Below are positions 2,070 to 6,279 of a stretch of DNA of 47,921 nucleotides, piece after piece; the first letter of the stretch is position 1, and every line of letters begins with the position of its first letter. A program made the position numbers and the translations under genes. The DNA is from a virus. The notes below the pieces were generated by a model. It was not told where the DNA came from, searched no databases, and saw only the letters and a program-made list of their open reading frames with translations. Where the stretch lies: the IMG/VR virus record IMGVR_UViG_3300021082_000007. One strand, given 5' to 3'.

Positions 2070-2906
2070 ATGCGCGTTAAGCTTCAATTCAAGGCTATGT
2101 TTTCTATTGATAGCCCAAAGGCAATCAAAGCGGCCAAATTCAACTATCTAAACGCTATCAACTATATGGCGCCGCACAAATCAGGCGATGGCGTCACTAA
2201 TCTGTGCTCGCATGCATCGCCCGCGTGCATATTGCTTTGCCTTGGTCGCGAAAGCGGACAAGCGGCCATGGTATCACACGCGACCGGAACCAATAAGGTG
2301 CGGCAATCCCGCGAACGCAAAGCACGCTATTTCATGACAGAACGCAACGCCTATTGCGTTGAGTTCCTAGTCCATGTTGCGCGTTCTATCCGCAAAGCAA
2401 AACGCAAGCGTATGGCGCTAGCGGTCCGCCCTAATGGCGCAACGGATATTGCATATGAGGGAATCCGTATCTTTGTATCGCCCGAGCTCGCCGCGTATCT
2501 GTCACAGATATCAGGCGAACAAATCACGCCAGGATTGCACACAATCTTTTCCGCTTTCCCCATGGTGCAATATGTCGATTACACAAAGAATCATCTTAGG
2601 TTTAATCGCCAATTGCCCGCTAACTATTCGCTGACATTTAGCCGCTCGGAAAACAATGAAGCGCAAGCTTTAGACTTGCTCGCCCGCGGTCATAATGTTG
2701 CGGTCATATTCGCGGGCGCCATGCCGCTGATGTGGAATGGATTCCATGTTATCGATGGCGACCAGCACGATTTGCGGCACCTTGATCCGCATGGCGTCGT
2801 TATTGGCTTGTCGCCAAAAGGCAACAAGGCGAAACGCGAGGGAGTCGCGTTGGGCTTTGTTGTCCCGCCGATCGCGGCGCCCGTTGAATATCAATTAGCG
2901 GCATGA
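2070..2906 (+). CDS. GP88-family-like protein (mycobacteriophage Gp88 type), function unknown
   Basis: NLCSHASPACILLCLGRESGQ ... VRQSRERKARYF ... LAVRPNGATDIAYE fits the Cys cluster and RLN.tSD pattern of Gp88-like proteins. The track start 1986 is a TTG inside the hairpin. ATG 2070 (agga 9 nt upstream) or ATG 2052 is more likely. Confidence 0.6.
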   Translation: MRVKLQFKAMFSIDSPKAIKAAKFNYLNAINYMAPHKSGDGVTNLCSHASPACILLCLGRESGQAAMVSHATGTNKVRQSRERKARYFMTERNAYCVEFLVHVARSIRKAKRKRMALAVRPNGATDIAYEGIRIFVSPELAAYLSQISGEQITPGLHTIFSAFPMVQYVDYTKNHLRFNRQLPANYSLTFSRSENNEAQALDLLARGHNVAVIFAGAMPLMWNGFHVIDGDQHDLRHLDPHGVVIGLSPKGNKAKREGVALGFVVPPIAAPVEYQLAA

Positions 2907-3010
2907 TCATGCTCAATATCAGCACACGCCGAATAGGCGGAATCCGCTTTATCAAAATCGGCCGCTTTTGCTTTAGCTTTTGCCTAACGCGAGCATACCG
3001 GCCGCTTTGA
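2903..3010 (+). CDS. Possible 35-aa ORF (MIMLNISTRRIGGIRFIKIGRFCFSFCLTRAYRPL)
   Basis: ATGA overlap with the upstream stop. Its TGA stop is the same TTGATTGC position of hairpin copy 2 that terminates gene 1759..1989 in copy 1. Below the track size cut-off. Confidence 0.25.
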   Translation: MIMLNISTRRIGGIRFIKIGRFCFSFCLTRAYRPL

Positions 3011-3068
3011 TTGCAGTGCATGCCGCGGGCGCGCCCGCGGCATGAGCGGCAATCACGCCGACAACAGA
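3007..3068 (+). repeat. Hairpin element copy 2 (same flanks, different 26-bp perfect palindrome core)
   Basis: TTGATTGCAGTG-[CATGCCGCGGGCGCGCCCGCGGCATG]-AGCGGCAATCACGCCGACAACAGA; ends 12 nt before the ATG at 3081. Confidence 0.9.
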
Positions 3069-3080
3069 GGCTAAAACAAA

Positions 3081-3380
3081 ATGGCATTATCAGAACAAGC
3101 TAAGCTTGCGTTAACCGGCGCCTATGCCACGCGAGGAAAAAACCGCGGGCAATTGCTCGCCCGTTGCCCGCGTAGTGAAACGCTAGCCGCGGCCGCGTGG
3201 CAAGGCGCCATGCTATCGTGCAATCCCTATCTGGCCAGCATTGGCGCATGCTTGTTTATGACCGCAGAGCAAAGGCTAATCCGTGATGAGGTATTGGCGC
3301 ACTTCGACGCCATGCCGCGGGAATATCGCATTATGGCGCAACGTGACCGCGAGGCATTGGAACGCCTAGGCGTATGGTGA
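3081..3380 (+). CDS. Hypothetical protein (99 aa)
   Basis: ATG with gagg upstream; followed by an intrinsic terminator. Confidence 0.7.
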   Translation: MALSEQAKLALTGAYATRGKNRGQLLARCPRSETLAAAAWQGAMLSCNPYLASIGACLFMTAEQRLIRDEVLAHFDAMPREYRIMAQRDREALERLGVW

Positions 3381-3395
3381 CAACCCCAACTATAG

Positions 3396-3427
3396 GCGCC
3401 CGCGGGACTAGTCCCGCGGGCGCTTTT
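3396..3427 (+). terminator. Rho-independent terminator
   Basis: gcgcccgcgggac-ta-gtcccgcgggcgc (13-bp GC arms) followed by tttt, 16 nt after the stop at 3380. Confidence 0.7.
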
Positions 3428-3431
3428 GCGC

Positions 3432-3700
3432 GTGCTGGACCGCGGCCGCGTGCTGGACCGTGTGCGGCCGCTCGCCCGCGTGCTGGACCGTGTGCGCGTG
3501 CTGGACCGCGGCCGCGTGCTGGACCGTGTGCGGCCGCTCGCCCGCGTGCTGGACCGTGTGCGCGTGCTGGACCGCGGCCACGTGCTGGACCGTGTGCGGC
3601 CGCTCGCCCGCGTGCTGGACCGTGTGCGGCCGCTCGCCCGCGTGCTGGACCGTGTGCGGCCGCTCGCCCGCGTGCTGGACCGCGGCCGCGTGCTGGACCG
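3432..3700. repeat. Hierarchical tandem array: 12 copies of core GTGCTGGACCG in 18-bp and 30-bp units
   Basis: Unit A is gtgctggaccgcggccgc, unit B is gtgctggaccgtgtgcggccgctcgcccgc, unit C is gtgctggaccgtgtgcgc. The order is A-B-C-A-B-C-A'-B-B-B-A-core, so the 66-bp ABC block occurs twice. GCGGCCGC recurs in most units. All six frames are open only because of the repeat. Confidence 0.95.
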
Positions 3701-3720
3701 CACGCGGGCGCCCGCGTGCG
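3699..3720. repeat. 22-bp perfect GC palindrome closing the array
   Basis: cgcacgcgggcgcccgcgtgcg equals its own reverse complement and overlaps the last GTGCTGGACCG core. Confidence 0.85.
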
Positions 3721-3863
3721 CGTGGCATATACACCTAAACCGTTGATTTTGCTAGCTTTTCAGCAGGATCCGGCGCGCGCCGAGCTGAAATGCGGCAGAA
3801 ATGCGGCAACTTGCAACCCACGCAGGGGTAAATTATCCCTTCTCAACAAATATGAGGATCGCC

Positions 3864-4241
3864 ATGAACAAAACCTATAAACTCTCTATAGATCGAGCCA
3901 TTGCCAGCCATAACCGTCATTCCGAAACGCCGATCGATACGATCGAGGCCAGGCAAATTCACCGGCTATTATCCGGCCGGCACAATTCCAGCCCAAGCCC
4001 GGAAACGCCCATGGAAAATCCCGCAGAGGGGCCAGGGGTCGATTCCATGACCAAGGAACGCTTCATCGCCGGCCTGGCCAGGCTCGGCTACAACATCAGC
4101 ACCGCGCATCGCTTGCTCGGCATGGGCCGGTCAACCATCTATCGCATGGCCGACGGCACCTCAGAAGTGCCAAGCGTGATCATGCGCCTGATGGACATGT
4201 ACGAGCGGTTCGGGATCCCGAACGAGCACCGCGGCGACTAG
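3864..4241 (+). CDS. Helix-turn-helix DNA-binding protein
   Basis: C-terminal NISTAHRLLGMGRSTIYRMADGTSEVP is a classic HTH. ATG 3864 is preceded by agga (5-nt spacer). The track start 3801 is less likely. Confidence 0.6.
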   Translation: MNKTYKLSIDRAIASHNRHSETPIDTIEARQIHRLLSGRHNSSPSPETPMENPAEGPGVDSMTKERFIAGLARLGYNISTAHRLLGMGRSTIYRMADGTSEVPSVIMRLMDMYERFGIPNEHRGD

Positions 4242-4443
4242 ACCGCCGCAGCACCAGGTCGTACTGCACTGGCTCAGTCGGCGTGGGCGGTATTGGCTCA
4301 GGTTCCCAGGAATGCCGGATAGCCTGGTGGTCCGGTGTCCTAAAATCTGCGTAAGCACTGAACCCAGTTAACTGGCAGTACTCGCGGTGGCAGCACGTAC
4401 ATAAAACAACCCAAGTGGTCAAAACCGCCTCCATAAAGCAGCA

Positions 4444-4479
4444 ACCCGAGATCACATCCTGGCCGGGGTGATCTCGGGT
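4444..4479. other. 12-bp-stem hairpin in a non-coding gap
   Basis: acccgagatcac - 12-nt loop - gtgatctcgggt; no U-tract on either strand. Confidence 0.5.
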
Positions 4480-4596
4480 GCGCCTCGGCTCCGATCGCGT
4501 GCGCGAGCGAAGCTATGAAAAACGGAACCCGGCCAGGGCAACAACACCAGAGCACGCCGGCCGGGCGGGAGCAAGCCGCGCAGCCGAAATGCCGCG

Positions 4597-4764
4597 CAAA
4601 TCCCAAACCCGGAAAAGCGGAGGAATCCATACACATATAACATACATGTTTTTATATATACTGGTTAAAGGCATATATTGGGATTGTTGGGATTGGGTTT
4701 AGATAACTTATTGGTTTCATTACACTTTTATCCAAATCCCAAACAAATCCCAAACCGATCCCAG
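4597..4764. other. Candidate replication origin: AT-rich core flanked by TTGGGATT iterons
   Basis: About 4627-4735 is far more AT-rich than the rest of the genome (catacacatataacatacatgtttttatatatactgg...). TTGGGATTG occurs twice in tandem at 4678-4695. The complement AATCCCAA occurs at about 4599, 4735 and 4746, plus gatccca at about 4757. TTATCCAAA, one mismatch from the DnaA box TTATCCACA, is at about 4727. The region sits in a 562-bp gap between convergent genes. Confidence 0.35.
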
Positions 4765-4803
4765 TTCCAGATTAATCACCCTTTGTTCTCCTCCCGGCCG
4801 GCG

Positions 4804-6279
4804 CTAGTCGTCATCTGTAGTCCCAGAAACCCCAAATCCCGCTCGCTTCATCGCCGCCGCCATGTCTTTGGGATTGCCCGGTTCACCCGTTTCGAGCTGT
4901 TTTGCCGTAGCCTTGACCATCTCCGCGGCGCCCTCCTTGTTCCGTATCTTCGGCCCGGCATAGCCGATCCAGCAGTAAACCCGCTGCCGCGGCTGGCCCC
5001 CGACATCGACCCGAAGTTCGACCTCGCTCGGCGCCTCGGTAGTCACTCGCCGGATCTGGCTGCGGACCATACTGGCGAGATTGACGCCATCGCCACCATC
5101 CATGCGCGCCAATACGGCCGTCTGGATCTGCGGCCGGGTGAACAATCCACCACTGCCGACAATGCGCCGCACATCGGCGACCGCGTCATCGAACTCGCTG
5201 CGGCTCATCGCCTGCATCCGCGACTTGGTCGCAGTCTTCAGCGGCGCGTAGGGGTTGAACCCGGTGAGATCGCTGGATTCCAGCCACCGCCCCAGCTCGG
5301 CGATATTGGCCGGCTCTTCCATCCACTCATCCAGCGCCTGGGCCATCTCCGGCGTCATCTGCACGCCGTTGGCGATCGCGGTCACCCGTCGATCGTTGTC
5401 CGGGATCTGCAACGGATCAAAGTTGTTGGAGAAAATCAGGTAGCTGGTGAACGCGATCGCCTCAAATGCCTGCCGGTTCTTCATCGTAAAGGTGCGCAAT
5501 ACCGGCCGCGGATCGACAATCTCCTTGACCCGTTCATAGACGGCACGCTGCGCGGCCCATTTCCCGCTTTCGAGCGTGTCCTTGGATTCCGACACCACCA
5601 CCAGCGTGGCGTAAGCCGCCCAATCGGTATAATCCGCCTGGCCGGACTTGCCGGCGAACAGGTCGAAGTCGATCGGCTTGACGTAGCGCGGCCCCATCAA
5701 GCGCGAGAGTATTTCCTTCAGCTTGCCGCGGCCGGCGCCATACACCGGGCCGTCGATACCGGCTGCCACCATGATCACGGCAACGCCCGGAATGTGCGGG
5801 TTTTGGTATTTGTACGCCAGCCAATCATAGAACCACTCGCGCTCGGTTTGATCGGGTATCAAATGCTCCATGAACTTGATCCACAGATCCACGCTGCCGC
5901 CCGTCGCAGTGTGCTGCGGCCGCCGGTAGGTGTTCTTGAACAACTGCCCGTCCTCCCAATAGCAGGGAAACGGCATGTCCGGTCGCAGCCGCACGCCGGC
6001 GATCTCGTACCGATCGGCGTGCAACATCCAGGCTGCGAATGCGTGCTTGCGCTTCACACCACCCTGCGGCCCGGTTTCCTCTATCCACCACGGCATGTAC
6101 AGCGTCTGAAACGCCTTCAGCACCATCGTGCAGTAGTGCGATGGCTCATACAGCATCACCACTCGATCGGCGCGCGCATCATAGCCGTGCGTGTTTAATA
6201 ACCAGTTGATCTTGATTTCAATCGGATCTGTATCGTCTGGCTTGTCCGGCATCGGCGCTATGTCAGATCGCTTATTCAT
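4804..6279 (-). CDS. SF3 (D5/P4-type) primase-associated helicase / NTPase
   Basis: Walker A-like GPVYGAGRGKLKE and Walker B-like ATLVVVSES; 491 aa; immediately downstream of the AEP prim-pol gene. Confidence 0.7.
   Translation of the reverse strand: MNKRSDIAPMPDKPDDTDPIEIKINWLLNTHGYDARADRVVMLYEPSHYCTMVLKAFQTLYMPWWIEETGPQGGVKRKHAFAAWMLHADRYEIAGVRLRPDMPFPCYWEDGQLFKNTYRRPQHTATGGSVDLWIKFMEHLIPDQTEREWFYDWLAYKYQNPHIPGVAVIMVAAGIDGPVYGAGRGKLKEILSRLMGPRYVKPIDFDLFAGKSGQADYTDWAAYATLVVVSESKDTLESGKWAAQRAVYERVKEIVDPRPVLRTFTMKNRQAFEAIAFTSYLIFSNNFDPLQIPDNDRRVTAIANGVQMTPEMAQALDEWMEEPANIAELGRWLESSDLTGFNPYAPLKTATKSRMQAMSRSEFDDAVADVRRIVGSGGLFTRPQIQTAVLARMDGGDGVNLASMVRSQIRRVTTEAPSEVELRVDVGGQPRQRVYCWIGYAGPKIRNKEGAAEMVKATAKQLETGEPGNPKDMAAAMKRAGFGVSGTTDDD

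Follow-up and report, generated by a model that had tools for sequence, protein, structure and literature searches.

A hierarchical tandem array of differing copy number in an uncultured soil phage and its reading as a young minisatellite

The DNA considered here, referred to as the window, is the whole 47,921-nucleotide virus record IMGVR_UViG_3300021082_000007 from IMG/VR, which by our reading represents a complete or near-complete 48-kb phage genome with 62% G+C. Between the gene of a 99-aa protein and the gene of a small predicted DNA-binding protein with a helix-turn-helix (HTH) motif, it carries a tandem array built around the core GTGCTGGACCG. An earlier note on this DNA had described 12 copies in three unit types of 18 and 30 bp, arranged as A-B-C-A-B-C-A'-B-B-B-A-core with a single substitution, and all of this was confirmed by an exact search for the core. 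The array and its borders comprise the following features.

3427..3700, + strand: tandem array of 274 bp with 12 exact GTGCTGGACCG cores, between the 99-aa gene and the HTH gene
Unit A, 18 bp: core followed by CGGCCGC
Unit B, 30 bp: core followed by TGTGCGGCCGCTCGCCCGC
Unit C, 18 bp: core followed by TGTGCGC
3432-3497 and 3498-3563: the two copies of the 66-bp A-B-C higher-order repeat
3564-3581: unit A'
3582-3671: three successive B units
3672-3689 and 3690-3700: unit A and, after it, the terminal core
3396..3427, + strand: left hairpin, a perfect 14+14 inverted repeat (GCGCCCGCGGGACT/AGTCCCGCGGGCGC) at 3396-3423 followed by TTTT; left boundary of the array
3699..3720, no strand assigned: 22-bp perfect palindrome CGCACGCGGGCGCCCGCGTGCG; right boundary of the array

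The cores start at positions 3432, 3450, 3480, 3498, 3516, 3546, 3564, 3582, 3612, 3642, 3672 and 3690, the distances from core to core being 18, 30, 18, 18, 30, 18, 18, 30, 30, 30 and 18 bp. All 12 exact copies are located on the + strand at 3432-3700, and neither strand of the window holds another one; with up to one mismatch allowed, 13 matches were found against 1.55 expected, a number reached in 0/100 shuffles. The units are contiguous, the segments between the cores belong to three recurring types (four with A'), and Tandem Repeats Finder (TRF) reported periods of 18, 30 and 66 over 3427-3701. The only substitution in ~270 bp of the array is the one that distinguishes A' (GGCCAC), and such near-identity of the units points to a recent expansion. 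The longest exact repeat inside the array measures 87 bp, and the recurrence of GCGGCCGC, also remarked on before, amounts to 8 occurrences within it. The array has ~79% G+C and is embedded in GC-rich flanks (0.633 G+C over 3001-4000); the genome holds only one further locus of this kind, a 19-bp repeat at 804-874. With a helical repeat of 10.5 bp, the spacings of 18 and 30 bp amount to 1.7 and 2.9 turns, i.e., the cores do not share one helix face, and the lack of helical phasing had been stated correctly. Alternating pyrimidine-purine tracts of 12-13 nt (CGTGTGCGCGTGC) were noticed at the C-to-A junctions (3489-3501 and 3555-3567), and a similar one (CGCGTGCGCGTG) adjoins the right palindrome at 3713-3724; they are potential Z-DNA-forming segments and could add to the instability of the array.

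Both elements said to bracket the array are present, the 14+14 hairpin and the 22-bp palindrome being perfect. The left hairpin (3396-3423) is also predicted by RNA folding and, with its weak tail, is likely the intrinsic terminator of the upstream operon; the consensus terminator scan, which needs at least five T, passed over it because its T run is only 4, which qualifies this part of the earlier description. The right arm of the palindrome, GCCCGCGTGC, is the same 10-mer that occurs at every junction of a B unit with the next unit; on the left, the flanking TTTTGCGC is similar to the tail of unit C, GTGTGCGC.

The number of units is not the same in all assemblies of this phage. Exact-protein look-ups with two flanking proteins revealed same-phage assemblies in which ~6 kb around the locus are base-for-base identical except for two tandem repeats (a look-up with the helicase protein brought no new alleles). 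The alleles of the array are as follows.

Window: 12 cores
ERZ27267981: 9 cores, A-B-C-A'-B-B-B-A-core, 66 bp shorter
ERZ27267964: 4 cores, A-B-A-core, 192 bp shorter
JGI 3300043602: 2 cores, A-core, 240 bp shorter, the contig of 47681 bp being equal to the window minus 240

A single deletion between like units converts the 12-copy allele into each of the shorter ones. The 12-copy order proposed earlier therefore holds for the window but is not a fixed property of the phage, other assemblies showing 2, 4 and 9 copies. In some of them the array is collapsed to 2-4 copies, and one refuting outcome named in the earlier note, a collapsed array, is thereby at least in part observed.

Such differences might have been produced by short-read assembly, in which case the repeat would exist while its 12-copy order, or the 2-, 4- and 9-copy versions, would not correspond to real molecules. 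This would agree with the change of copy number between identical flanks, with the short versions being the shortest paths through a repeat graph, and with the behaviour of other contigs at this place: the contig of JGI 3300044728, whose first ten units are those of the window, stops within the array, and all Logan unitigs (k = 31, at least 3 runs) end exactly at its edges. On the other hand, the order of units is reproduced in three assemblies, namely L255 (first 10 units as in the window), L254 (the window minus one 66-bp unit) and the window itself; the longest internal exact repeat is shorter than the k-mers of the assemblers; and the separate repeat array, which at 71 bp stays below the k = 141 used for the ERZ assemblies, varies as well. 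An assembly with k = 127-141 can put the units in order when the longest internal repeat is 87 bp, and contigs with 2 and 4 copies require k-mers covering both flanks. For these reasons we judge an assembly artefact to be rather improbable and the copy-number differences, known from assemblies and not from reads, to be more likely biological.

The second variable locus is a perfect tandem repeat of the 19-bp TACCATGCTTCAAAGCAAA (804-874, 71 bp) with 3.7 copies in the window and 1.7 copies in both ERZ assemblies. In the relatives of the phage, the intergenic slot after the homologue of gene g207 contains unrelated tandem repeats, e.g., AACAAGT x6.7 and AACAACT x7.7 (L004 3154-3201, L005 3054-3108, L006 3359-3406), and therefore a repeat of some kind is conserved there.

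The relatives share the gene order g207, g1210, GP88-like gene, variable small genes, HTH gene, non-coding AT-rich region, helicase (- strand), primase (- strand) and exonuclease. No tandem array was found in the slot between the 99-aa and HTH genes in four IMG/VR relatives (L003-L006) and in ~20 loci (L257-L278) which represent at least six lineages and carry homologues of the 99-aa protein with 75-87% identity. Neither was a core with up to 2 mismatches counted in this slot, 700 bp after the end of the 99-aa gene being scanned; two or three near-matches of the core in relatives are situated 360-490 bp downstream of that end. The core is thus not conserved in relatives, an outcome which the earlier note had named as speaking against a function of the array. 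Scans of IMG/VR, metagenome and genome collections for two cores separated by 7-19 nucleotides gave, among the matches listed, chance matches only, typically 1-2 per locus, the pattern being too permissive to be informative; 0/246 loci among the matches listed contained an A, B or C unit, and in the two of these loci that were read (L001, L002) the matches fell within apparent protein-coding sequence.

The HTH gene of most relatives either adjoins the stop codon of the upstream gene or overlaps with it. The overlap is ATGGTAA in L261, the same ATG surviving as 3374 in the window, and TGATG in L267. Among the relatives examined, only L258, of an 86% lineage, has a homologous spacer, of ~200 bp, with a terminator hairpin, GC-rich hairpins and a single copy of GCCGGACCGGATCCGCGCAC; the latter agrees with unit A plus the next core at 14/20 positions and is a possible single-copy seed. 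With the array absent from the relatives and a spacer seen only in L258, both spacer and array appear to be recent and branch-specific. The HTH domain itself, from LGYNIS to ADGTS including the STIYRM segment, is identical in L267, which has no array, and therefore the array is not the conserved target of the HTH protein.

This bears on the proposal, made in the earlier note, of an iteron- or centromere-like array bound by the HTH protein, which we do not uphold: the HTH protein is conserved in relatives devoid of both array and core, and a better candidate for the origin of replication lies 0.9 kb downstream of the array.

About 4620-4770, between the HTH gene and the 3' end of the D5-like helicase gene: candidate origin, AT-rich stretch and repeats

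The AT-rich stretch at ~4620-4730, the one nearest to the array, has repeats of its own: TTGGGATTG occurs two or three times on one side of it and CAAATCCCAAA three times, in the opposite orientation, on the other. In the relatives examined, an AT-rich stretch with its own short repeats beside it occupies the same slot downstream of the HTH gene: AGACACAAACC in L004 (6620-6750), GGGCCAC/ATGGCCC in L003 (2736-2850), AGACCCAAA in L258 (3520-3720) and TATGGCCCAG in L267 (3380-3560). On this anatomy, replication probably starts at ~4620-4770 and not at the array, and since it is the classical anatomy of an origin, the main reason for reading the GTGCTGGACCG repeats as iterons falls. The helicase gene next to this region (4804-6279, - strand) looks mosaic, its product being 72% identical in L004 and 40-44% identical in L003, L005 and L006, while that of the adjoining primase gene is 68-71% identical in all four relatives; the helicase might co-vary with lineage-specific origin repeats.

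That the array serves an initiator or helicase as origin iterons, or is transcribed into a repeat RNA such as a spacer-less mimic of a CRISPR repeat, is in our estimation extremely improbable. Its direct repeats, its location 1.1 kb away from the genes of the D5-like helicase and the primase and the length of the 30-bp B unit, which is within the size range of CRISPR repeats, would suit such roles. The origin, however, is accounted for by the AT-rich stretch with its inverted iterons and by the AT-rich stretches with repeats that relatives have in the corresponding slot; the array itself has no AT-rich unwinding element next to it, no positional conservation in relatives and no spacing of about 11 or 22 bp that would keep the sites on one helix face. 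As to the RNA, no unique spacers of similar length separate the units; the Rfam search, at the gathering score and at E <= 10, gave no CRISPR-DR match and nothing relevant for the array, and neither did the tRNA and tmRNA searches. The RNA of the + strand has a fold z-score of -1.1, no better than shuffled sequences, and that of the - strand -2.6, the folded region taking in the flanking hairpins; the units show no stem-loop besides the GCGGCCGC palindrome. A partition centromere is expected to be linked with genes of an NTPase and a centromere-binding protein, and no ParA, ParM, ParB or integrase was found in Pfam and PHROG scans, which covered the neighbouring genes and most large open reading frames (ORFs); among the ORFs scanned, there were no lysogeny or partition genes.

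All six reading frames are stop-free over about 3411-3735, as had been observed, and the claim that none of them has a start or a ribosome-binding site (RBS) proved correct as regards the latter only. Candidate starts do exist (ATG 3374, TTG 3426, GTG 3460 and a GTG in every core), and inspection by eye found no Shine-Dalgarno-like stretch before 3426/3432 or before the antisense GTG 3734. The repeats could accordingly be imagined to be translated into a small, variable peptide made of repeats, an amino-acid tandem repeat arisen de novo as in Borg elements, either in the sense frame of 3426 (RVLDRG / RVLDRVRPLA / RVLDRV) or in the antisense ORF 3734-3408 (VQHAAA / VQHAGERPHT / VQHAHT). Both unit lengths are divisible by three, as is required of amino-acid repeats, and divisibility by three is what separates genic from intergenic repeats in Borgs, where the divisible fraction among intergenic repeat units is only 14-38% (Schoelmerich et al., PLoS Biol 2023, PMC9879509). 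The G+C contents by codon position (0.98/0.49/0.93 for sense and 0.93/0.49/0.98 for antisense) are shaped as in real genes of this genome (0.62/0.48/0.77), and gene callers placed ORFs over the array in two assemblies, albeit on opposite strands. The codon scores of +0.10 (sense) and +0.15 (antisense) per codon lie at the upper end of the off-frame scores (95th percentile +0.085), but they are also near the 5th percentile of genuine in-frame windows (+0.07; gene median +0.42).

Further evidence disagrees with translation. The candidate starts of the best-scoring sense frame (TTG 3426, GTG 3432) are located 3' of the GC-rich hairpin, which puts the beginning of the sense ORF into the tail of a very stable and presumably terminating structure; in the 2-copy allele this ORF would be only ~26 codons long. 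Only the ORF from ATG 3374 has a plausible coupled start, and its frame is the one that scores lowest (-0.69 per codon, GC3 0.49). A Pfam match above the cut-off, to EndIII_4Fe-2S, rests on a Cys-rich repeat stretch of 6 residues in the third sense frame (3460..3738) and does not look meaningful; an antisense match to Trp_ring is below the cut-off, and no homologous ORF was seen in relatives. A collagen-like AGP frame was considered and rejected, glycine not being every third residue. With no credible combination of start, RBS and in-frame codon usage found in the array, it is most likely non-coding by these sequence features, and we regard its translation as highly unlikely.

Considering these data, we propose, with moderate confidence, that the array is an intergenic minisatellite, young, specific to its lineage and hypermutable, or in other words a variable-number tandem repeat (VNTR) locus. 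It has the features of such loci: head-to-tail units in the range of 10-100 bp, near-identical units, copy number differing among near-identical genomes (as seen in assemblies, not reads) and a locus which is not conserved. On the branch of this phage, the formerly abutting or overlapping 99-aa and HTH genes would have become separated by a spacer with a terminator hairpin and, apparently, a promoter region of its own. Short GC-rich seeds between the two strong palindromes would then have been amplified by replication slippage or unequal homologous recombination, giving first the three unit types and later the 66-bp A-B-C unit and the run of B units. The same process would now alter the copy number far faster than point mutations accumulate, with the consequence that otherwise identical genomes carry 2, 4, 9 or 12 cores. 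Slippage or recombination as the mechanism, and dispensability of the array to the phage, are what we infer from this pattern. The array is probably neither a replication origin, nor a CRISPR mimic, nor a translated sequence, and any effect it has is most likely incidental, although it may serve as padding or insulation between the upstream terminator and the promoter region of the HTH gene. The conclusion of the earlier note that the array represents functional DNA or RNA rather than a gene is thus retained in its second half, the array being most likely non-coding, and its functional half is left mostly unsupported by the varying copy number and the relatives without an array. Likewise, the proposed CRISPR-repeat mimic or structured RNA was not borne out by the Rfam and folding results given above.

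Several considerations weigh against a minisatellite. The shorter alleles are exactly an assembler's shortcut paths through the repeat graph, and the polymorphism, seen in assemblies only, may not be biological. Unit lengths that are multiples of 3 and a G+C content with a period of 3 (0.98/0.49/0.93) are predicted by no neutral non-coding repeat; by rough estimates, the chance of the former is ~0.1 and of the latter ~0.05. Compact phage genomes make tolerated junk less expected. Finally, the 12 cores are perfectly conserved and co-oriented, and every allele retains at least 2 of them, which a selected binding site would fit too.

The last point leads to the possibility that the array is a protein-binding array tunable by copy number, each core of 11-14 bp (CGCGTGCTGGACCG) being occupied by a single monomer of a DNA-binding protein of phage or host origin. 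Its role could be that of a sink or decoy, that of a nucleoprotein roadblock or insulator placed 5' of the HTH gene, or that of a one-directional Chi-like array countering a host exonuclease, the variation of repeat number tuning the dose in the manner of a contingency locus. The cores, identical and absent from the rest of the 48 kb, are invariant while the tails differ by unit type; the array is directly upstream of the gene of a DNA-binding protein, within the replication/early region; and the core holds GCTGG. This pentamer is also contained in the Chi site of E. coli, GCTGGTGG. Against this, no relative has an array or core in the slot, the HTH domain is identical in L267, which lacks the array, and an otherwise identical genome manages with a 2-core allele. 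The spacing of 18 and 30 bp puts successive sites on different faces of the helix, no partition genes are among the ORFs scanned, and conservation of the core would be expected anyway of copies that are few events old. A binding array is, in our opinion, unlikely. A narrower proposal, to which we assign a low probability, is a contingency locus in which recombination changes the number of 11-14-bp sites from 2 to 12 and thereby tunes the titration of a host or phage DNA-binding factor near early/replication genes; such a factor might be a nuclease of defence or repair with a Chi-like recognition site, a nucleoid protein or the phage regulator.

The minisatellite, which we continue to prefer, is situated in the left part of the genome, occupied by small early genes of the + strand and the replication module. 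The neighbouring genes and elements are listed below.

3081..3380, + strand: upstream early gene, an ORF of 99 aa; the same gene was called in independent assemblies
3787..3808, + strand: tandem duplication, GAAATGCGGCA x2 (TRF, 100% match), directly 5' of a weak promoter-like site
3864..4241, + strand: HTH gene, encoding a small predicted DNA-binding protein with a Fis/NtrC-type helix-turn-helix in its C-terminal half
Replication module: GP88-like protein, D5-like helicase, primase, DUF2800 exonuclease, family-A DNA polymerase and helicase
Structural genes, - strand: large terminase, portal-like, SU10-adaptor-like and tail fibre genes

The 99-aa protein (3081-3380) has 252 homologues at E <= 1e-3, found in environmental phage contigs. 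The HTH protein (3864-4241), homologues of which are present in L003-L006, matches Pfam HTH_8 with E = 2.5e-4, short of the curated cut-off; its match among PHROGs is a transcriptional regulator and that in the Protein Data Bank (PDB) a designed HTH_8 peptide. Searches of NCBIfam and of PDB sequences did not identify this protein or its neighbours any further. Public phage records gave no DNA match with 2800-4700 (distant mode) or 1-25000 (near mode), and no match to the HTH protein by tblastn.

The HTH gene is preceded by the RBS GAGGA, 6 nt upstream of its ATG at 3864, and by the weak promoter-like site TTGCAA-N17-TATCCC; where the window has GAAATGCGGCA twice, the alignment shows a single GAAACGCAA in the 86% relative L258. 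The gene, with an internal ATG at 4048, resembles a fusion: its C-terminal HTH half (MTKERF...) forms a separate ORF of 64-70 aa in several relatives (L004-L006, L261-L277), and the 125-aa form occurs in L003 and L267. A product of the internal start is possible, since a strong AGGAGG precedes the internal ATG in L003.

Farther upstream, a strong sigma-70-like promoter, TTGACT-N19-TATAAG with the palindrome CCTATC..GATAGG within its spacer, was noticed at 1696-1730. It closely precedes the RBS and start codon (ATG) of gene 1759-1989 and may function as a regulated early promoter of the operon extending into the array. Two promoter-related ideas were dropped: a sigma-54 promoter in the array itself, where by inspection TGGAC..GC is only loosely like TGGCAC-N5-TTGC, is restricted to B units and appears to be a GC-rich coincidence; and ATGCGGCA as a dispersed operator, its 6 sites against 4.7 expected showing no enrichment. 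An intergenic cassette of ~70 nt is conserved before small early genes, both in the window (3008-3075 and about 1986-2055) and in relatives (L004 5004-5083 and 5707-5787; L005 4710, 5004 and 5704; L003 1300-1347). It consists of a long hairpin (TGATTGCAG..ATGCCGCGGGC / GCCCGCGGCAT..GCGGCAATCA) followed by GCCGAAAACAGGAAAG and then ATG, and its central stem varies between copies with complementarity kept, which suggests a structured processing, termination or regulatory element. In one relative, L278 (ERZ25039534 contig_15340, 180,692 bp), early and tail genes adjoin genes of bacterial appearance (PilZ, HIT, rotamase, SurA-like) at ~13.7-20.3 kb of the locus, and a primase that may be truncated lies where the two parts meet; a prophage remnant or a chimeric assembly could account for this, and the contig might give a hint of the host.

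As a clean natural example of a hypervariable, hierarchical minisatellite in an uncultured soil phage, with four alleles in public metagenomes between identical flanks, the array is usable as a strain marker and calls for caution in assembly, contigs breaking or being shortened at it. For annotation, the likely origin is placed at about 4620-4770, which corrects a tempting mis-annotation of the array. If its copy number has a phenotype, the locus would be among the few repeat-based contingency loci described in a phage. It also lends itself to testing whether variation of repeat number serves phages as a contingency mechanism.

Among known systems, the origin iterons of lambda ori, P1 oriR/incA and P4 ori/crr resemble the array in having several co-oriented short repeats near replication genes, and P4, like the phage described here, has a D5-type primase-helicase; in contrast to them, the array lacks an adjacent AT-rich unwinding element, helical phasing and conservation in relatives. 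Plasmid centromeres, e.g., parC of R1, share with it tandem direct repeats of about 10-20 bp, whereas in this genome no ParA, ParM or ParR-like genes and no lysogeny module are among the ORFs scanned, and the copy number is unconstrained. Closer are the bacterial VNTR or minisatellite loci used in multiple-locus VNTR analysis (MLVA) typing, which are likewise intergenic and lineage-specific, with head-to-tail units of at least 10 bp, near-perfect identity and differences in copy number between otherwise identical genomes; the array differs from them in residing in a virulent-looking 48-kb phage, in combining three unit types with a 66-bp higher-order repeat and a homogeneous run, and in its two bracketing palindromes. 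By this comparison, the closest described phenomenon appears to be that of Borg extrachromosomal elements (Schoelmerich et al., PLoS Biol 2023, PMC9879509), whose tandem repeats are perfect and evolve fast. Those repeats are A-rich and distributed genome-wide, and their intergenic units are mostly not divisible by three, whereas the ~79% G+C array is one of two loci only and both its unit lengths are divisible. Nevertheless, Borg repeats and the array have in common perfect units, recent independent origin, absence from close relatives, unit numbers variable within populations, intergenic occurrence and seed-like flanking partial repeats, which in Borgs are read as seeds (PMC9879509).

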